This document shows positions 301 through 33,783 of a stretch of 64,000 nt of DNA, piece after piece (positions within the stretch are counted from its first letter, which is position 1; each line of letters starts with the position of its first letter). The notes beneath the pieces were generated by a model. The model ran no database searches. It saw nothing but the letters and a program-made list of their open reading frames with translations, and was not told the DNA's origin. The translations under genes and the position numbers were made by a program. Source of the DNA: a virus (Duplodnaviria; Heunggongvirae; Uroviricota; Caudoviricetes); the IMG/VR virus record IMGVR_UViG_3300035661_000046, positions 1-64,000 of that record; one strand, written 5' to 3'.

Positions 301-1036
301 AAACTCCACAGCTGTTTCTAGTCAGGGTCAAATATCGGCCTCTACTTTATCTACTTTGTCTACAGTTAATTCTACTGAGTCTTCTAGTCAAGGTCAGACT
401 ACTACTGCAGCAACAAGTATTACGGTAAATACCTCAGTTAACTCCAGTCAAGGTCAGACTGCTTCAAGTACCGCCAATAGACTAATATCAGGGATAGAAG
501 CTTCTAGTCAAGGTCAGACTTCTTTAAGTAGCAGCGGACTTACTAGAGCTTCATCTGCTGCTTCTAGTCAAGCCCAGACTACCCTAAGTACAGATACTAT
601 AGCAGTTTCTAGTTCATTGGTCTCTACTCAAAGTCAAAGTTCACTTGCCTCCTTAAGTAGGACAGTATCTGTCTTTGAATCCTCTAGTCAAACTCAGTTT
701 AATACAAGCAATATAACTTTATCGGTATATTCTACTTGCACTACTGTTCAAACTCAGACCTCTGACATAGTAAATCAGTTATTAGTTAACGGCGTAATAT
801 CTAGCTCTCAAGCCCAAGAACTAAGCGCCCTAATAGCTCAGGGTATTAGAGGACTAGTTCTTGTTAATGGGTATGTGGTACCGGTTCCTGTAGGAGAAGA
901 TGGTCGGTATCTAGCATTATCTGTAGGAGTAGATGGAAGGCTTCATGCAGGAGTAATAGGTGCGAAGCACTTAATATTAGACCAAACAACTAGTAAAATT
1001 AGACAAGCTGCTACAGATGAAATCGTTATAGTATAA
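2..1036 (+). CDS. Ser/Thr-rich 20-aa-repeat protein (putative tail fiber/adhesin-like structural protein), 5' partial
   Basis: The frame is open from the window edge in the same frame as the tracked ORF 356..1036. The motif ESSSQGQT(A/T) recurs about 13 times with ~20-aa period, with no stop across 2..355. The C-terminal 100 aa are non-repetitive. Confidence 0.6.
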   Translation, partial: SFTESSSQGQTASSIASASLSFTESSSQGQTASSITSASRSFAESSSQGQTASGTANASRSFAESSNQCQTTSGTANASRSFTESSGQGQTTAAIISLGINSTAVSSQGQISASTLSTLSTVNSTESSSQGQTTTAATSITVNTSVNSSQGQTASSTANRLISGIEASSQGQTSLSSSGLTRASSAASSQAQTTLSTDTIAVSSSLVSTQSQSSLASLSRTVSVFESSSQTQFNTSNITLSVYSTCTTVQTQTSDIVNQLLVNGVISSSQAQELSALIAQGIRGLVLVNGYVVPVPVGEDGRYLALSVGVDGRLHAGVIGAKHLILDQTTSKIRQAATDEIVIV

Positions 1037-1130
1037 GGGTTACAAGCCTAGTTTGATAATCTTAGGTTAAACTAAGAAGATCTATGTGTAGGAATGCATA
1101 GATCTTACTAATCTAACAATAAGTGTAATA

Positions 1131-1781
1131 ATGGAAAATTTATCAGAAATAATTACCTCCATAGGTATTGAAACAGGTATGCTGCTAGGAGCGGTAGTAG
1201 GCGGTATTGTAATACATGGAATTAGTACTTTAAAAACAGCGTATAACAATAGAAAAGACGCAAAAAGAGAATCTATTCCAAGTATGGTAGAAACCGATGT
1301 AGAAATATATAAACTTCTATCTGAAATACTCCTGAAGTCAAAAGCCTCTCGCGCTTCAATATTTCAATTTCATAATGGTACTCACTACGTTAACTCCGCC
1401 TCACAAATGAAGATAAGTTGTACTCATGAGGTAGTAGCTGATGGTATTTCTAAAGAAGCAAAGAATATGCAGAACATGTTGATAAGTCAATATGCCAAGA
1501 TAGTCAATGATGTAATATCAAAGCCTTACACCGTTATAGAGGTGGGCTCTAGTGACTCTGAAGACTTTATTCAGATACTTAGATCACAGGGAGTAGAGTC
1601 CGCTGTATACGCCCCTTTCTGTAGAGGCACAGATATAGAAGGCTTTATAAGTCTTTCGTATTTAGATCCGCTAGTCTCAAACTTCCCCGGAGAGTCAAAG
1701 AGTAGTATTGATGGTGTACTTAGTAACATGCTTAGTGAGTGCTCATTAAAAATAGGGTACTTGCTTCGTAAACAACACTGA
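1131..1781 (+). CDS. hypothetical protein with an N-terminal transmembrane segment
   Basis: 216-aa ORF with a hydrophobic stretch GMLLGAVVGGIVIHGI near the N-terminus. No recognisable catalytic motif. Confidence 0.45.
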   Translation: MENLSEIITSIGIETGMLLGAVVGGIVIHGISTLKTAYNNRKDAKRESIPSMVETDVEIYKLLSEILLKSKASRASIFQFHNGTHYVNSASQMKISCTHEVVADGISKEAKNMQNMLISQYAKIVNDVISKPYTVIEVGSSDSEDFIQILRSQGVESAVYAPFCRGTDIEGFISLSYLDPLVSNFPGESKSSIDGVLSNMLSECSLKIGYLLRKQH

Positions 1782-2282: not shown

Positions 2283-2533
2283 AAATACTATTACTAGCCA
2301 TTCTTTTAACCTTGTCAGGCTGTGCTACAGTTCCTTCTCCTCCAGCAGAAGTAAAGGTGTTAGTACCAGTTCCTTGTGAGATTAAACCAATAGATAAACC
2401 TGCAATGCCTATGGATTCCATTCAGGTTTCTGACGACTTGTTTACTAAAGTTAAAGCGGCTCTTTCTGAGATTGAAACTAGAAAAGGATATGAGCTTAAA
2501 CTAGAGACTGCGGTGAAATCATGTCAGCCTTAA
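2279..2533 (+). CDS. putative o-spanin (Rz1-like outer-membrane lipoprotein)
   Basis: 84 aa with signal peptide MKILLLAILLTLSGC carrying a lipobox (L-S-G-C) and a proline-rich mature part (PSPPAEVKVLVPVPCE). Classic spanin pair architecture with the previous ORF. Confidence 0.55.
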   Translation: MKILLLAILLTLSGCATVPSPPAEVKVLVPVPCEIKPIDKPAMPMDSIQVSDDLFTKVKAALSEIETRKGYELKLETAVKSCQP

Positions 2534-2823
2534 TAGCCAGAGCTAATATAGACATAGGTGTGGGTGTATGTCCCTGCCATACCTCACCTGTATCGTATAC
2601 AACTATGTTTATAACTGGAGCTAGTACCGTTACTCTAGATGGGCAACCTATGGCAATAGTAGGTAGTATAGGTATTTCCAGCTGCGGACACGCAACTACT
2701 GCTCTGACAGGTAGTCCTATAAGCACAGCTAATGGGCAACCTATTCACAGAGTAGGGGATACTGGAAGTAACTGCGGAGCCTATACCGTTCTAACTGGTT
2801 CCTCTAATTCGGGTTCAAACTAA
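2521..2823 (+). CDS. hypothetical protein (Gly/Ser/Thr-rich)
   Basis: 100-aa ORF immediately downstream; coding call only. Confidence 0.35.
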   Translation: MSALIARANIDIGVGVCPCHTSPVSYTTMFITGASTVTLDGQPMAIVGSIGISSCGHATTALTGSPISTANGQPIHRVGDTGSNCGAYTVLTGSSNSGSN

Positions 2824-5126: not shown

Positions 5127-5813
5127 TTATACTACAACTTGAGCTTCTCGATATTTCTTTTCTAACCATACTTGGCCTTTGCCTGTAACTCTAGTCTGGA
5201 AAGTAGGATGAGATTTACCTATATTATCAACGAAGGGTTTATGTTCTACTTCAACGAAAATCCCACGATCCTTGAATACTTGGTAAGGTCTGTTATTTCT
5301 CATAAGAATTCTATCAGTACGAAGCTGTTTGAAAAACGTGTTTCTTCCAACGCCTATAACAGCAGCAAACTCCCCTATCTCACATGAGCCATCTAGATTG
5401 CGGACTGCTATTGCAAATTCGACTTTAGGTTTATCAGCTTCAATCTGAGCCAAAGCTAGTTGCTTAGCCTCTACTTCGTCGGCCCAGGCACGCGCTGCCA
5501 ATACAGGATTACTAAAATCAGGCAAGGACTTGTTTACCATATTTTCTAATTCACGCCAGCGATCAATAATAGCAAGACGATACTTAGCAGAGTATCCTGC
5601 AATAATTAAATCACACTCTCGTCGTGGTAAGTTGAAGCAGGGTAGCATACGGCCAGAGCTGTCTTTGTACTGAGCCGAAAATACGGCGCAGTCAATATTG
5701 CACTCTGCTAGTATTTTTCGTATCTTTTCTAGAACATGACGATGCTCTGTTCCTGTCAGCTCTGCGATTTCCAAACTTGACATTGTTTTCTGTGTAGCCA
5801 ATGCTTGTGTCAT
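5127..5813 (-). CDS. Rha-family phage regulatory protein with KilA-C-like C-terminal domain (antirepressor-like)
   Basis: N-terminus MSSLEIAELTGTEHRHVLEKIRKIL is characteristic of the phage Rha regulatory family. The C-terminal half resembles KilAC/antirepressor domains. Confidence 0.5.
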   Translation of the reverse strand: MTQALATQKTMSSLEIAELTGTEHRHVLEKIRKILAECNIDCAVFSAQYKDSSGRMLPCFNLPRRECDLIIAGYSAKYRLAIIDRWRELENMVNKSLPDFSNPVLAARAWADEVEAKQLALAQIEADKPKVEFAIAVRNLDGSCEIGEFAAVIGVGRNTFFKQLRTDRILMRNNRPYQVFKDRGIFVEVEHKPFVDNIGKSHPTFQTRVTGKGQVWLEKKYREAQVVV

Positions 5814-5828
5814 TTTAAACTCCTAAAA

Positions 5829-6257
5829 TTAAAGATCAGAATCATCTAGTAAGTAATCCCCTGCAGCCATAATGTATGCATCTAGTAAAAAGACGTGTAT
5901 AACTCCGGAGGCTATAAAGATGCTAGTAAACATACCGCCTGCGTACCAAGAAGCTGCGCCTGCGATTAAAGTTAACCAAGTAGCAAACATAGAATCCCGT
6001 CTCATACTTTCCAAATTACTTTTAGCAAATTCTGTGAGAGGTGTTGTGCTTAAAACACGAGCACTACCCATATATAAGAGTGGGGCTGCTAACAAGATAA
6101 ATGTATTGCATACTTCCAGAAAAAGGTTGATACTTGGATAAAACACTGATATCATACCAGCGATAATACCTAAAACATAAAACATAAATGTGGACATACT
6201 AATACCTATTTCTGAAGTTAAAAAATTACCAAGATACAACTCTAAAGTTGAGATCAA
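5829..6257 (-). CDS. hypothetical multi-pass membrane protein
   Basis: 142 aa with 3-4 hydrophobic helices. Confidence 0.45.
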   Translation of the reverse strand: MISTLELYLGNFLTSEIGISMSTFMFYVLGIIAGMISVFYPSINLFLEVCNTFILLAAPLLYMGSARVLSTTPLTEFAKSNLESMRRDSMFATWLTLIAGAASWYAGGMFTSIFIASGVIHVFLLDAYIMAAGDYLLDDSDL

Positions 6258-6735
6258 GTGTAAGGTTTGTGGGTGTATATTCCACTCTACTAAAGCTCAA
6301 GTGCTAGCAGTATATAGAGGTGGAAGAAAAAAGAAAACATTAGAATCTTGTTCTCGTAAATGCTCGGCAGTTATCAAAGGCTCTAAGACTAGAAGTCTAC
6401 CAGAGATAATACTATATGGTATAATCTCGACTAAGTTCCCGGAGTTAGAAATAATACAGAATGATAGGACAGTACTAGATAATGGTCTAGAGATAGACCT
6501 ATACATACCTGCGTACACCTTAGCCATAGAAGTAAATGGGCCTACTCATTACGATAACATCTATGGAGAACTTCGCCTACTACGTACTGAACTTAACGAC
6601 ATGCGAAAGAAAGACAAGGCAGAGGAGTTAGGAATTACAATGAAAATTATAAACATTTCCTCTATACCAGAGAAAGAGCTTAGAACTTTCATTGCAACCT
6701 TTTTTGAGTTAGAGATTATACCAATCCTCGTCTGA
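6190..6735 (+). CDS. putative Zn-ribbon + DUF559/Vsr-like endonuclease-domain protein (possible free-standing endonuclease)
   Basis: CKVCGC...C...C zinc-ribbon at the N-terminus. The C-terminal LEIDLYIPAYTLAIEVNGPTHY fits the D...E-V-D/N-G..H pattern of DUF559/Vsr-like PD-(D/E)xK nucleases. It is a + strand gene inside the minus block and overlaps the 3' end of 5829..6257 in antisense. Confidence 0.3.
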   Translation: MDILIPISEVKKLPRYNSKVEIKCKVCGCIFHSTKAQVLAVYRGGRKKKTLESCSRKCSAVIKGSKTRSLPEIILYGIISTKFPELEIIQNDRTVLDNGLEIDLYIPAYTLAIEVNGPTHYDNIYGELRLLRTELNDMRKKDKAEELGITMKIINISSIPEKELRTFIATFFELEIIPILV

Positions 6736-7962: not shown

Positions 7963-8020
7963 CCATTAAACACAATGCTAATTATTGACGCAAGGCTTAC
8001 GCCCCGCATTAGACTAACTA

Positions 8021-8374
8021 CTAACTATTCATGTAGTCAATCCACTCTTGGTCTTTATATACTGCTACGTAGTCTACCTCTGTGCTGAACAGCTCACCCT
8101 CTTGCACGTATTGTGACATGTCTCCAGTCGCGCTTACTGCCCGCGCTAGGCAATCACTACCTACCAGCCTATGGAATGTGACTTTCATCTTACCAGCATA
8201 CCCATCGTTCTGGATACGGGTAAATAGCCCAGTTTCGACTACATCCGACATTTCAGCTTTGTCAGCCAGTAAGAACGCTAGCGACAATTCGCCTAGCTCC
8301 ATAGCACTTTCAATCATCTCTACAGTTCGTAGTCCCTGTGCTTTCAGGGCTTTGATTTCTTCGTACTTTAACAT
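8021..8374 (-). CDS. hypothetical protein
   Basis: 117-aa ORF with the extended -10 motif about 50 nt upstream. Confidence 0.5.
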   Translation of the reverse strand: MLKYEEIKALKAQGLRTVEMIESAMELGELSLAFLLADKAEMSDVVETGLFTRIQNDGYAGKMKVTFHRLVGSDCLARAVSATGDMSQYVQEGELFSTEVDYVAVYKDQEWIDYMNS

Positions 8375-8421
8375 TTCGCAACTCCTTTACTAAAGATATA
8401 AACCATTATGTTTCCATATAA

Positions 8422-8432
8422 TTCTTATACCA
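8422..8432 (-). promoter_or_regulatory. extended -10 promoter motif (minus-sense TGGTATAAGAA)
   Basis: + strand ttcttatacca lies about 50 nt upstream of the 8021..8374 start. It is one of at least 12 copies of this motif upstream of minus-strand genes. Confidence 0.5.
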
Positions 8433-8559
8433 AGACTGGATATCCTTATTGAAGCTAAAAAAGGAAGTACACTACGAGAAGCTAAAAAAAGCTAGAGGTA
8501 GTTTATTACCCCTAGCCCCAGCTATAACAGCTGTCTTGAAACCTTAAAACATAAACTTA

Positions 8560-9760
8560 AAAATTTCTGATGTCTGCAGCGCTAGCCTGGATGGCCCGTG
8601 ACTGTGTGCACGCCCGCACTACCTACCACTCTTACCCCTGACATCTCTGAAAGAGATGAGGTTAAAGTCCAAGAGTAACTCTTGGTTTACTACTCTAATA
8701 CTTTATGTTTTGTTTTGCTTAATAAACTTAAAAAATGTGTGTACATTGCGCGCCAGGTACCCGGAGACTGGGCCTCGGTTACCGGCTGTACATCCGTCGA
8801 AGACGGAATTGAATTCCCTAGAGTAACTCCAGGTTTACTACTAATAATAAATACTTTATTAAGACTTTGAAACTTTGAATAAACTCATGAGGAGATACTA
8901 TCTCTTCAGAAGACACGTATGAAAGTCCGTAAGTTTGGTGCAGCGCAACGTAGTGTAGCGTAACCAAGACTGGAGGATTTCAGTAGTGTAGTAAAATCTC
9001 TAGAGTAACTCTAGAACTATTGCTTAAGATACTTTATTCAATAAAACTAAGTTTGACGAACTCATTGAAGGTAGGTGCCCTTCTAGATCCACATCCGGCC
9101 GGCGCCTGCAGCTGACGCTCCTCAGGACGACGGGTCCTCCAGCATAGCTGGGGGTTGATATACCTGATAGTTACTATCAGTATTTTGTTTTAATACTTCG
9201 TCATTTGAAACAAGTGAAACTAGTTGACTAAACTCGATTGAGAGACGGAAAGACATGCATTTAAATGGACCATAGTCTCGTCTCTTCGAAACCAGGGACT
9301 GGGTCATCGCCGTCTACATCCGATTCCTTTGTAAAAGGAATAGTAAAGTGTAATTGTTACAATTACGATAATCAGTGTTAAGCCCACGCAACTTAAAACT
9401 AACCTAAATACTTTAGTCGTTGAAACTCTCCACTCTTACCCGGTGGAGATTAGGTTTACTACTGGCTTTCTATTTCTCGAATGTTACTACAAGTAACCTC
9501 TTTATAAGGGGCGTAGGTATCCAAGGATAGGATGTCAACTTGACCAGTACCTGATTGTACTACACAGATACCTACTTCAGGGTATTCTACTGCTGATGCT
9601 ATTATTGATCCAGTTGCCATCGCTATCTTATCCTTTTACAAAATTAATTAAAAAAAGAGTTTAAGTATCTTACCCGATAAATCTAGGTTTGTAATCTATG
9701 TCTAGATTACAGTTAAAAAAATAAGAGTAACTCTTATCCTGTAACTTACTGCAATGTGAA
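8560..9760. repeat. ORF-poor regulatory island with four copies of the palindrome AGAGTAACTCT and GC-rich hairpin blocks
   Basis: Palindromes at 8672-8682, 8820-8830 (one mismatch), 9002-9012 and 9724-9734. Each is followed by ggtttactact or AT-rich TACTTTAT. The blocks 8580-8650, 8745-8815 and 9075-9150 are locally GC-rich in an AT-rich genome. No ORF of at least 60 aa spans most of the island. Confidence 0.6.
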
Positions 9761-9868
9761 ATACTAAGATACTGAGAAGGAACGAGAGTCTATACGCAAG
9801 CTATTAGAGAACTATAACATAGTAGTCTAATAGGACATGGTACGGAGTCGAGTTTTTCTTCTCTAAAT

Positions 9869-9879
9869 ATCTTATACCA
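9869..9879 (-). promoter_or_regulatory. extended -10 promoter motif copy
   Basis: atcttatacca at the upstream edge of the non-coding island, between the HTH gene and the island. Confidence 0.4.
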
Positions 9880-9895
9880 GGAATTTGCAAATTAT

Positions 9896-10138
9896 TTAAA
9901 CTGCAACTTTAAGACGTTGCCCCGTCAAAGTGTGCAAGGGGATTTTTGTTGCGTTTGAAATCTTTATAACGTTGTGTAAGCCTGGGTTGTAATTACTATC
10001 ACTACCTAGCTCTATACGACGAATAGTACGAGAGGATACTTTAGTCATGGACGAGAACTCTGACACTGACAAGTTATTCTTAATACGGAATCCCAGAACT
10101 TTAGTTGACATTACTTTGCGAGCTTTTTCGATCTTCAT
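9896..10138 (-). CDS. XRE-family helix-turn-helix transcriptional regulator
   Basis: LGFRIKNNLSVSEFSSMTKVSSRTIRRIELG matches the XRE/Cro-CI HTH pattern (...LSQ.ELA...GVS...IS..E.G). It is adjacent to the palindrome array. Confidence 0.6.
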   Translation of the reverse strand: MKIEKARKVMSTKVLGFRIKNNLSVSEFSSMTKVSSRTIRRIELGSDSNYNPGLHNVIKISNATKIPLHTLTGQRLKVAV

Positions 10139-12773: not shown

Positions 12774-13094
12774 CTATTCCTCTAATAAGTAAGTGTCTTG
12801 GATTAACTCTACTGCGACGCTATCATCTGAGCAGTAAAATAAAGTGGGGAAAATATCCAGAGGAAATTTCTCATTCATAAAGGCTTGACCAAAACGCAGG
12901 TGCCTGTATCTGGCAAACTTAGATACGCTAGTTGCCATTATATACTCTAAACAAAAATCATCGAATTCACTTTGAGTAATCCGCTTTTTAGATTTGGCCG
13001 TAAAGGATCCGTCTCCATTATCCACTATTTCGAATAGATCCGGAGAGTACTTCTCTAATAAATTTGAGTCCAATGGATGATACATTTTTGCCAC
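12774..13094 (-). CDS. hypothetical protein
   Basis: 106-aa ORF; promoter motif at 13129-13139. Confidence 0.45.
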   Translation of the reverse strand: MAKMYHPLDSNLLEKYSPDLFEIVDNGDGSFTAKSKKRITQSEFDDFCLEYIMATSVSKFARYRHLRFGQAFMNEKFPLDIFPTLFYCSDDSVAVELIQDTYLLEE

Positions 13095-13128
13095 CTCCTG
13101 AAATAAAAATAAAGTATTCTTTGTACTA

Positions 13129-31724: not shown

Positions 31725-31990
31725 TATTCATACCCCGTTATTTCACGAAGTTCATAACCAGGATCACCCTCCTCGAAAGTAGGAGCAGTAGCCTTAGCTG
31801 TGTTAGTTACGTATAACCAACGTGCAGTACGTGTACTTTGTAAAGCACAACCCTCTACGGTTGCAGGAATAAAATTACAATTACCGCACCCACACTTTCT
31901 AGTTCTGAGAAACTTCTTATTATTAGCCAAATCCTCAAAATACTCTAGAGGGTACAAGCTATCTGTAAAGTCTTCTACTTCTTGTTCCAT
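31724..31990 (-). CDS. small Cys-rich (zinc-binding) protein
   Basis: CGCGNC...C motif; 88 aa. Overlaps the start of the RuvC-like gene. Confidence 0.4.
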   Translation of the reverse strand: MEQEVEDFTDSLYPLEYFEDLANNKKFLRTRKCGCGNCNFIPATVEGCALQSTRTARWLYVTNTAKATAPTFEEGDPGYELREITGYE

Positions 31991-32563
31991 TATCTATTTC
32001 CTATTTTATTTATCATTGTTAATAAATCTTCTTGCGAAGAACCCCGATGTACTACTACCAAGTCTCCCCAGTTTGGCCCTATCTCTGCTTCAACTCCAAT
32101 TGGTAGGTCTAGCCAGTCAAAGGTTTCAACAGGGTAGTCTTCCATGTAATAGAAGGCTGTCTCTAGGACTTCAGCTGCGTGTTGTAGAGGACATTCTATT
32201 TCAATTGAGTCATAGACGGTACAGATGCACTTTGCACCAAACTTCTTTATAGCGTTATTTAAAGCTGTAAACACCACCAACCCTAATGTCGACGATGTAG
32301 ACTGTACCCTAACATTCTGAGAATTTCTTAATGCAGCATTATACACTGCAGTCTTCTTATACATTGGCAAAGTACCAAACTCCATCTTACGCTGTGCAAA
32401 AGGAGTATACACAAACTGGTTGTGCTTTGCCATTGCATGTGCATCTTCTACATATTTCTTAATAAGAGGGTATGTATCGAAGTACATGTTAATTAAAGTC
32501 TGAGCTTCTTCTTTAGAGATTCCCAGGTTCATTGCGACTCCTGCTACAGAGGAGCCGTATAAG
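31990..32563 (-). CDS. family A DNA polymerase, polymerase subunit, exon 2 (C-terminal part incl. motif C)
   Basis: GSSVAGVAMNLGISKEEAQTLINMYFDTYP corresponds to Pol I [37 protein letters not shown] is the motif C (HDE) region. The frame is open upstream of the tracked Met back to the predicted 3' splice site at 32563. Confidence 0.7.
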
Positions 32564-32827
32564 CACTTAGTCTACTACTTTCGTAATAGAGTGGACTATA
32601 CCATTACCCTTTTCTAAAACACGCTTTTACGAGGGTATTCGCCGTATTATACCTAGTTAAAGGTATCGCAGCAAGATCTGTTCTAGATCTTCTGTCAGTC
32701 TCTGAACCATTTATACCAATCCCTTGGTATTCTGGCTGCTGATTGCCATACCTAGTATCTAGGGTTAGGGTTCCAGCAATTGAGCGAATTTTTAATACAG
32801 CATTACTACCGTATGGCACCTAAGTTA
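32564..32827 (-). mobile_element. group I intron (ORF-less, 264 nt) in the DNA polymerase gene
   Basis: It interrupts Pol A between motif B and the following helix. Predicted P1: exon ggcaU paired with intron GUGCC (U-G at the splice site). The intron starts taacttag and ends ...ctaagtG. It shares four conserved blocks with the rtcB intron, including a P7-like AUAGUCC element. Confidence 0.65.
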
Positions 32828-33783
32828 ATGCCGAATGTTAACGCTTTTGCTGCTTGTCTATAACCCTTATACTCCTTATATAAGGGATGTCCGGGATTAT
32901 CGACGATAGAGATAAACTCATCGTAGTCTAACCTTCGCATTGCACTAGCCGAGAAGGAGTGGAAATCCTTACCTTCTTCAATAGCCTTAAGTAAAGTAGG
33001 ATCCTTACATAGCGCTCCTAGAATCTTTACTTCGGCACTAGAGAAGTCTAAAGCAATAAACACATTGCCATCTGCTACCTTAAAGCATCTACGTACATTA
33101 TACCCATGCTTAGGTCTAGGTAACTGAGTTAAGTTAGGGTTATCACCAGTTATACGGAAACTACTAGTTCCGTGTAGGTTATAAGAAGGATGTACTCTAC
33201 CATCAGGCTTAACGTGGTCTTCTACGTAAGTCTTAATAAAAGTACGGTGAGCACTAGCAATGTCATTGCGTTTTGCTATATCTGCCAAGTAAGGGATTCT
33301 AGCAGATTTAACCAAGGCGGCTAATGCATCACCATCAGTAGAAGGAGATCCTGTCTTAGTTAAGAAAGGTGGAGTCAATCCTAACTCTCCGTATAAGAAA
33401 TCGCCTAGTGCAGCTCCAGAGTCTAAGTCTACCGGATGACCAATCGCAGTAAAAATAGAATGTTCCAAAGAAGCAATCTCTGCTTCCATTTGACGATTCA
33501 TTTGTCTATTAAGCTCGATGTCATACTCAATGCCATTGAGTTCTAAGTCACAGATAAACTCAAAAGCTGGCATTTCGTATTTGCGTATTGCTTCTAGTAT
33601 AGAAGGAATCTTACCCTTTGTTAATTTCCCATGAGTAGAAGTTACATACAGGGGTTGCTCAATAATTCTGGGAAAAGTAGCAGCCAGTATTTCTGAGGTT
33701 GTAATGCAGTCTATACCCGCGTACAGTAGCAAGTCTTCAACTGGATAATCTTCATATGTGTTATATATCGGTTTTTGTTCCAT
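32828..33783 (-). CDS. family A DNA polymerase, polymerase subunit, exon 1 (palm/fingers incl. motifs A and B)
   Basis: Motif A ALDFSSAEVKIL (DYSQIELR-like) and motif B RQAAKALTFGI(LYG). The tracked ORF reads into the intron and stops after ...FGINLGAIR. Confidence 0.7.

Follow-up and report, generated by a model that had tools for sequence, protein, structure and literature searches.

Layout of the island and its repeat units

The stretch analysed here, termed the window, comprises positions 1 to 64,000 of the Caudoviricetes record IMGVR_UViG_3300035661_000046. It is part of a large phage genome that encodes RNA and DNA ligases, NAD-salvage enzymes, ribonucleotide reductase, a helicase and a primase, with seven tRNA genes at 20.8–27.8 kb and almost all genes on the minus strand from 10 kb to 64 kb. 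The closest cultured relatives are Vibrio phage D69 and Salmonella phage Arash (33–44% amino-acid identity for the primase and polymerase), followed by SPO1-like phages. An island crowded with palindromes lies at 8375–9895, flanked by two minus-strand genes, one for a small XRE/HTH_3 (helix-turn-helix, HTH) protein (9896–10138) and one for a 117-aa protein (8021–8374). We consider it probable that this island is a conserved, transcribed, mostly non-coding array of hairpin RNAs, ~1.4 kb long and read from the minus strand, in which the palindromes are RNA stem-loops.

A first-pass annotation of the same DNA had placed the feature at 8560–9760, read it on the plus strand and described it as poor in open reading frames (ORFs), next to an XRE-family gene. 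That gene is indeed present on the minus strand at the position given. The extent was too narrow, the actual span being ~8480–9880, and the directional features all run on the minus strand (Table 1). The island is mostly non-coding, yet it holds a conserved minus-strand gene of 53 aa. Its frame is maintained in two closely related contigs (L011 and L008; relatives are described below), and in a more distant allele, L015, an ORF with in-frame indels shares 62% identity and 87% positives with it. The encoded protein, AVEYPEVGI..VD(I/V)LSL..Y.PY(K/R)EVTC, has no match in Pfam or PHROG. A 61-aa ORF at 9122–9307 (minus strand) was rejected as a gene because it is broken by a deletion in L015. No conserved reading frame was found in the islands of the L137 clade, where translated matches occur in all frames and on both strands, indicating nucleotide motifs rather than protein.

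The 11-bp palindrome AGAGTAACTCT has exact copies at 8672, 9002 and 9724 and a one-mismatch copy at 8820, as previously listed, and no further exact copy exists anywhere in the 64-kb window. The exact copies are the cores of 17-bp palindromes (CCAAGAG..CTCTTGG, TCTAGAG..CTCTAGA and ATAAGAG..CTCTTAT), of which the three outer pairs vary among copies while complementarity is retained. Two extra 17-mers, centred on GTWAC, lie at 9164–9180 and 9350–9366. Of the window's seven perfect odd palindromes of 17 bp, five fall inside the 1.5-kb island. Perfect triloop hairpins with a stem of at least 7 bp reach 5.3 per kb in the island versus 0.16 per kb outside, a ~33-fold higher density, and the observed count was reached by none of 1000 shuffles. 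The palindromes are real and far above chance.

Moreover, three accessory motifs are island-specific and kept in a single orientation: GGTTTACTAC (3 copies in the window, all in the island), ATACTTTA (4 island copies) and CCACTCTTACC (2 island copies). The GC-rich hairpins said to precede three AGAGTAACTCT copies were only partly recovered, as two of the three quoted do not precede one: the 'ggacgacgggtcc' block sits before the CTGATAGTTACTATCAG palindrome, and the element following ctccac-N9-gtggag is GGTTTACTACT, with no palindrome. A tandem-repeat finder gave no relevant output.

The sequence TGGTATAA(G) is strongly over-represented in the window, with 21 copies, 19 of them on the minus strand. 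These copies are mainly intergenic, upstream of genes or of a tRNA, and have the common downstream consensus aa.tat.tagagaa; this looks like the main extended -10 promoter class of the phage in the replication-gene region. Exactly two copies of TGGTATAAG touch the island, one at each end. Gene-sense terminators close the islands of L137, L143 and L058 as well.

Between the two ends, the array is divided into units of about 150–190 nt. Hairpin centres are located at 9358, 9172, 9007, 8825 and 8677 and the final terminator at ~8503, giving spacings of 186, 165, 182, 148 and 174 nt. The common plan is a GC-rich long hairpin, followed by (A/U)(U/C)GAGUU(U/C)(A/G) or UAAGUUUAU, then UAAAGUAU (replaced by GAAGUAUU in one unit) and finally the 17-nt hairpin. 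The AU-rich linker is conserved as ..GAGUUUAU..UAAAGUAU..GUAAA... Unit 1 is fully delimited, with a promoter, a predicted start near 9863, a long hairpin, a linker containing UUAGUAUU and a 17-nt hairpin with U7. The fold of its long hairpin is retained in the window, L011, L012 and L015 despite replacement of the inner sequence. A full U-tract follows the 17-nt hairpin at 9729 (U7) and a partial one that at 9007 (U4), whereas the hairpins at 9172, 8825 and 8677 have none.

Table 1. Positions of the island features in the window and of the second island in related contigs
Feature	Position	Strand	Remarks
80-aa XRE/HTH_3 gene	9896..10138	-	Pfam HTH_3 E = 7.6e-07; directly upstream of the island
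Predicted promoter TGGTATAAG	9871..9879	-	just past the XRE stop codon, directed into the island
Unit 1, variable long hairpin	9774..9863	-	closed by GAGAAG/CUUCUC
17-nt hairpin AUAAGAG-UUA-CUCUUAU + U7	9714..9737	-	canonical intrinsic terminator; the 9724 copy of the first-pass annotation
53-aa gene	9459..9620	-	conserved; AAGGA 10 nt upstream of ATG
Unit 2	9350..9449	-	hairpin UCUCCAC..GUGGAGA 9427-9449; UAAAGUAU 9408-9415
Unit 2, 17-nt hairpin GUAAUUG-UAA-CAAUUAC	9350-9366	-	
Unit 3	9164..9349	-	variable hairpins 9240-9345; UCGAGUUUA 9229-9237; GAAGUAUU 9192-9199
Unit 3, 17-nt hairpin CUGAUAG-UAA-CUAUCAG	9164-9180	-	
Unit 4	8999..9163	-	GC-rich variable hairpins 9075-9160; AUGAGUUCG 9057-9065; UAAAGUAU 9029-9036
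Unit 4, 17-nt hairpin UCUAGAG-UUA-CUCUAGA	8999-9015	-	
Unit 5	8817..8998	-	long hairpin with apical CACUACG 8887-8990; AUGAGUUUA 8880-8888; UAAAGUAU 8851-8858
Unit 5, 17-nt hairpin CCUGGAG-UUA-CUCUAGG	8817-8833	-	one G·U pair
Unit 6	8669..8816	-	hairpins 8741-8806; UAAGUUUAU 8722-8730; UAAAGUAU 8698-8705
Unit 6, 17-nt hairpin CCAAGAG-UUA-CUCUUGG	8669-8685	-	
Unit 7	8481..8668	-	hairpin CAUCUCU-UUC-AGAGAUG; GC-rich hairpin 8570-8662; UAAGUUUAU 8551-8559; terminator
Strong terminator	8519→8488	-	13-bp stem + U7; from terminator scan; closes the array
Predicted promoter TGGTATAAG	8424..8432	-	just past the terminator, 58 nt before the 117-aa gene (8021-8374)
TGGTATAA(G) copies	8432, 9879, 10974, 13139, 20325, 23153, 27791, 35480, 42794, 45953, 47832, 48836, 52020, and others	-	
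Second island, L137	2050-2702		
Second island, L146	~620-1215		
Second island, L058	~8000-8650		
Second island, L142	~2300-2765		

Covariation and strand polarity of the 17-nt stem-loop

Relatives were collected in several ways. Exact-protein look-ups gave the metagenome contigs L001–L012, which are 92–100% identical to the window, and the more distant allele L015 was reached through a neighbouring protein of 65% identity. A metagenome scan with the pattern AGAGTAACTCT-N5-35-ATACTTTA was too permissive, with at least 120 matches, and among the matches listed only L058 is a true relative. It carries an HTH gene of 80 aa, with 34% identity in BLASTP (53 residues matched) and 23% when aligned in full, and behind this gene lies an island of 1.3 kb that has no ORF and is built like that of the window. 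Three further lineages (L137–L141, L146 and L142–L145) were reached through homologues of this L058 protein. A DNA similarity search against cultured phages returned no match, near or distant; the flanking proteins and XRE homologues had no match in cultured phages or IMG/VR, and the island motifs were not found in the fetched parts of Arash and D69.

Every hairpin centred on AG[AT][AT]ACT in these islands was taken, a selection rule that is strand-symmetric, which gave 39 distinct copies from about six phage lineages. Conservation across these copies is confined to the apex, AG-[WWA]-CU. The two loop-adjacent pairs, G-C and A-U, are invariant, whereas the outer stem pairs 3–7 covary, with 4–10 pair types each. 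The stem ends at 7 bp, given that the would-be eighth pair is Watson-Crick in one copy of the 39. Loops are UUA, UAA, AUA or AAA, and the last two break the DNA palindrome while leaving the stem intact.

The deviations from Watson-Crick pairing are polarised. On the minus (gene-sense) strand we counted 249 Watson-Crick pairs, 15 G·U pairs and no A·C pair (p = 6e-5). Read on the gene strand, every one of the 15 transition-type mismatches is G·U, and by inspection they represent at least 10 independent substitution events. For example, the imperfect copy at 8820 has a G·U pair when read on the minus strand, and its stem is perfect in alleles L007 and L009. The 17-mer CTAACAGTAACTGTTAG of L015 differs from CTGATAGTAACTATCAG of the window by two compensatory double changes. 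Wobble polarity and covariation most likely indicate that these elements act as single-stranded hairpins of the minus strand, in RNA.

These data bear on the proposal, made in the first-pass annotation, of a bank of operators for a dimeric regulator. In such a bank, an XRE-type HTH dimer bound to duplex palindromes would repress or roadblock transcription through the island. A perfect 17-bp palindrome has the right size for a Cro/CI-type operator, and, as at lambda OR1-3, the palindromes stand beside a small HTH gene. Moreover, the XRE gene and the island are invariably adjacent, neither the recognition helix VSxxTIR nor the core AGTWACT varies between clades, and copies are more alike within one phage than between phages. 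However, the half-sites are not conserved: AGTWACT is common to the copies (AGAGTWACTCT in the window), whereas the outer 3–5 bp vary and stay complementary. In HTH operators, half-site centres confined to the central 7 bp would be too close for successive major grooves. Duplex recognition predicts no strand asymmetry, against 15 G·U and 0 A·C deviations, and the loop variants GATAC and GAAAC spoil the DNA symmetry while the stem is kept.

The position of the copies argues in the same direction. Unlike the lambda sites, those of the island are 150–720 bp apart and off promoters; no copy lies in or beside either TGGTATAAG promoter (9879 and 8432), nor does any precede the XRE gene in the window or in L137, and a second island of the L137 clade contains the hairpins without an adjacent XRE gene. 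Three expectations for operators at the sequence level, namely conserved half-sites, promoter overlap and strand symmetry, were thus not borne out. A duplex-binding dimer can select neither complementarity at non-conserved positions nor wobble polarity, while a single-stranded hairpin can, so that the operator reading is disfavoured and we regard it as quite unlikely. More generally, a 'palindromic operator' call is testable from sequence alone through wobble polarity and covariation.

The other proposal of the first-pass annotation, a cluster of small structured RNAs, fits the folding, the promoter, the terminators and the compensatory changes, with the amendment that the RNAs would come from the minus strand and include the palindromes themselves.

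Conservation and divergence of the cassette

The cassette formed by the XRE gene and the island is also found in L015, L058, L137, L146 and L143, always with the XRE gene directly upstream. The XRE protein of the window is only 22–29% identical to those of the L058 clade, yet the recognition helix VSxxTIR is invariant among all of them; given this contrast, the protein probably has a conserved DNA target. In the L058 clade polA is followed within a few kb by the cassette, which in the window stands ~21 kb from the corresponding genes, so that the HTH gene and the island travel as a pair.

A second, shorter non-coding island is present straight after polA in L137, L146, L058 and L142 (Table 1). 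It begins with a TGGTATAAG promoter, followed by three repeats of CTAAAGTAT-N14-AGUAACU hairpin-U4-6, and each repeat is then followed by a CCGA..UCGG hairpin and ACGAGTTTAGA. In these four contigs most of the second-island hairpins have the U4-6 tail, and the spacing of CTAAAGTAT-N14 upstream of them is fixed. Contigs L137, L138, L139 and L146 all end ~20 nt past the 85-aa gene that follows the island; such shared ends, in two lineages and several samples, suggest a repeat boundary, a physical end or a hypervariable junction.

The 991-nt island core folds far better than its shuffles, both as minus strand (z = -5.4) and as plus strand (z = -4.2). An apical CACUACG(U)U motif, present in the long hairpin of unit 5, recurs in five lineages on unrelated stems, with fold z-scores of -2.1 to -5.9. 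Sequences of the CACUACG hairpin were too divergent for alignment by MAFFT/RNAalifold, which therefore yielded the 17-nt stem alone. A covariance-model search against Rfam, which had been advised for this region, found nothing in the island at the gathering threshold and nothing credible at E <= 10, and a tRNA search of the island found none. The sub-threshold 'rimP leader' Rfam matches at the ends of the L143 and L137 islands were discarded, as they correspond to the terminator and its U-run.

The hairpin bodies are the fastest-changing part of the island, diverging 2–3.5 times faster than the linkers among close alleles. In unit 4 of L015, for example, the hairpin body is strongly diverged and the linker nearly identical. 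L015 also lacks one block, corresponding to window positions 9215–9426, that is, unit 2 and most of unit 3 (the 9215–9349 part). Many metagenome contigs (L002–L012) end within the island, at differing positions that include window ~8393, which is consistent with strain microdiversity. A different gene stands downstream of the island in L007, so that the island has a mosaic boundary at its distal edge. The island is a hotspot of variation between strains.

A conserved hairpin handle alternating with fast-evolving segments, and the gain or loss of blocks of 1–2 units between strains, recall arrays of clustered regularly interspaced short palindromic repeats (CRISPR). Those arrays have near-identical repeats of 23–50 bp, spacers of 26–72 bp and cas genes. 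A CRISPR array was rejected, since the units here are 148–186 nt long, the handles are non-identical with a 7-nt core in common, and each variable part is a self-complementary hairpin; nor did any cas gene turn up among the scanned proteins, in which no systematic cas search was made.

The abundance of hairpins could also reflect an element acting as single-stranded DNA or as a cruciform, such as an origin or priming signal, a packaging site, or an injection-stop region like that of phage T5. Both strands form the long hairpins equally well, and numerous metagenome contigs break in or beside the island. The geometry of a 7-bp stem with a 3-nt loop is that of N4 hairpin promoters, which have stems of 5–7 bp and 3-nt loops and serve a giant virion RNA polymerase. 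However, the window has no ORF for such a polymerase, its largest ORF being 937 aa, and the contig breaks are equally explained by strain microdiversity. The U-tracts, the flanking promoters and the closing terminator all suit transcription, and no DnaA box (TTWTNCACA) occurs in the island.

The closest parallel among DNA elements is Repeat Region 3 of T5, an untranslated injection-stop region that has paired DnaA boxes in conserved inverted repeats and lies at the inner end of a long terminal repeat (bioRxiv 10.1101/866236). Like the island, it is a large untranslated region (>1 kb ORF-free) dense in palindromes and direct repeats, with an architecture kept among relatives (bioRxiv 10.1101/866236). 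In contrast, the island has no DnaA-box pairs, no shared sequence and no demonstrated link to a terminal repeat, its polarity and wobble pairs favour RNA, and the phage is not T5-like. The T5-type region was rejected for the lack of DnaA boxes and because the phage is of another type, and we judge a DNA element of any of the above kinds to be as improbable as the operator bank.

As a separate observation, 6-bp palindromes are depleted by ~18% in the rest of the window (869 observed versus ~1059 expected) and not in the island, where they include numerous GC-rich restriction-type sites. A role as restriction-site decoy was considered and set aside, because 6-bp palindromes are just mildly enriched in the islands (z = 1–2.6).

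Candidate RNA products of the array

From the arrangement of its signals, the array would be expressed as follows. Host RNA polymerase would start at TGGTATAAG (9879–9871), right after the XRE stop codon, and would stop for good at the terminator 8519→8488, beyond which the promoter at 8432 would restart transcription of protein-coding genes. Seven units of ~150–190 nt and the 53-aa gene would be transcribed in between, in the sense of the neighbouring genes. Each unit would comprise a fast-evolving long, imperfect, GC-rich hairpin whose fold is kept, an AU-rich linker, and the 17-nt stem-loop (7-bp stem, WWA triloop, invariant closing pairs G-C and A-U), which would act in RNA. Copies with a U-tail (9729, and most in the second island of the relatives) may act as intrinsic terminators, while those without it could be leaky terminators, or handles for 3'-end formation, processing or protein recognition. 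The output would be a nested or processed set of small hairpin RNAs. We infer that the units accumulate as discrete RNAs, with regulatory or decoy roles, and the array probably represents a new phage non-coding RNA family.

A different organisation would make each unit an independent mini-gene, with a single-element promoter of its own, (C/A)TAAAGTAT, that a phage sigma factor would recognise, and with the hairpin as a 5' stem-loop or attenuator. All lineages conserve TAAAGTAT, which invariably has the orientation of the genes and precedes the hairpin by 12–17 nt in the window or 14 nt in the second island. It resembles the single-element promoter tAATGTAtA of phiEco32 gp36, for which the start site is 6–8 bp downstream (PMC8948821). 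In addition, the related phage Arash encodes a sigma factor, and in the L137 clade a TGGTATATAA promoter is followed by a family hairpin at a similar spacing. On the other hand, in the units that are delimited (unit 1, and the first second-island unit of L137 and L146) the TAAAGTAT-like motif and the hairpin are at the 3' end, and a promoter 14 nt ahead of a hairpin with U6 would terminate immediately. TAAAGTAT was not found upstream of protein genes: outside the island it occurs eight times, seven times inside an ORF or at its 3' end and once overlapping a TGGTATAAA promoter. We therefore hold mini-genes to be unlikely. Two other promoter readings were rejected, a sigma-70 -35/-10 reading of GAGTTTAT..TAAAGTAT, for which the spacing fails, and a SPO1 middle-promoter reading (AGGAGA-17-TTTNTTT), which suits some copies of the L137 clade and not the window.

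The island could instead be an insulator only, that is, terminators and stabilising hairpins that separate two operons without any RNA product. The strong terminator and new promoter at its distal end agree with this, as does the terminator-like appearance of several hairpins. However, a single terminator would be enough for that purpose, a dedicated promoter feeds the island, and compensatory change maintains the folds. Moreover, ~1 kb of unit architecture, linkers and apical motifs persists while the XRE proteins have diverged to 22–29% identity. This explanation appears very unlikely to us.

Several observations nevertheless weigh against an array of hairpin RNAs. Neither an Rfam family nor a cultured-phage match is available to anchor its function. 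A good U-tract is found in only about a third of the hairpins, and units 2–7 of the window are without their own TGGTATAAG promoter, so that discrete RNAs would need readthrough or leaky termination, or processing. The likeness of TAAAGTAT to the phiEco32 promoter counts on the same side. G·T wobble would also be tolerable in single-stranded DNA, and the AGTWACT core could be one candidate target of the XRE protein, forming a possible DNA-protein pair. Lastly, the long hairpins fold about equally on both strands, with no G·U bias in their 1x1 mismatches (7 versus 9) and similar numbers of G·U pairs overall (196 versus 187); every mismatch type is tolerated there, and the G·U polarity test is uninformative for these hairpins.

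Known RNA elements resemble the array in part. Like intrinsic terminators and terminator stacks, it has stem-loops with a U-tract (9729 and most second-island copies) and a classical GC-rich terminator at its end. Unlike them, its stem-loops have an invariant loop and two invariant closing pairs, a stem fixed at 7 bp and a fixed UAAAGUAU spacing, and many are without a U-tract; generic terminators have none of these constraints on loop, stem length or spacing. Tandem or paralogous small-RNA genes such as PrrF1/2, OmrA/B and LhrC1-5, and phage or prophage small RNAs such as DicF, offer another comparison. As in the tandem genes, the island repeats units of ~150–190 nt with a structured 5' body, an AU-rich stretch, a 3' hairpin and a dedicated promoter. 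It differs from them in having seven head-to-tail units in a large phage of lytic type, mostly without a recognisable promoter of their own, in bodies that are long imperfect duplexes diverging rapidly, and in the lack of an Rfam match.

If the units are real RNAs, they would constitute an unrecognised non-coding RNA family, carried in a cassette with a small HTH gene by a clade of large uncultivated phages related to Arash and D69, some genomes having two islands. Three features go beyond ordinary terminators and small RNAs, namely a precisely sized stem-loop with a conserved apex, fast-evolving long duplexes and the strain-level deletion of 1–2 units; together they point to an RNA handle recognised by a protein and to selection on the variable hairpins. 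A more speculative idea, which we find doubtful, is a new class of locus that produces promoter-driven paralogous RNAs, each combining a fixed 7-bp triloop handle bound by a protein with a diversifying imperfect duplex of ~30 bp. Were this true, units would be gained and lost among strains, the XRE protein would be a dedicated regulator of the array, and the RNAs could serve as decoys or guides in phage-host conflict, e.g., as decoys for RNase III or a double-stranded RNA sensor, or as multi-seed regulators.

Outside the island, the sequence AAUACUUUAUU at 13107–13117 (minus strand) is a perfect 11-nt complement of the repeated linker AAUAAAGUAUU; about one such match is expected by chance. 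It lies in the 5' untranslated region below the 13139 promoter, where ~9 nt separate it from the Shine-Dalgarno sequence, further downstream, of the ORF that begins at 13084. In D69, a 1.2-kb stretch of the tRNA cluster (98,971–100,147; L014 18972–20148) is annotated solely with hypothetical ORFs of 30–47 aa; it contains no window-type repeats and may be another unannotated structured RNA.

The surroundings of the island also include an Ant/Rha-like anti-repressor homologue (5127–5813, minus strand), ~2.5 kb downstream, and an HNH homing-endonuclease-like gene (6190–6735, plus strand) on the opposite strand among minus-strand genes. Finally, a group I intron (Rfam, 67.9 bits) was detected at 32572–32837 (minus strand), between ORFs 31990–32532 and 32806–33783. 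Both ORFs match the single polA of L137, indicating that the polymerase gene of the window is split by the intron, and weaker group I intron matches are present in polA of L058 too.

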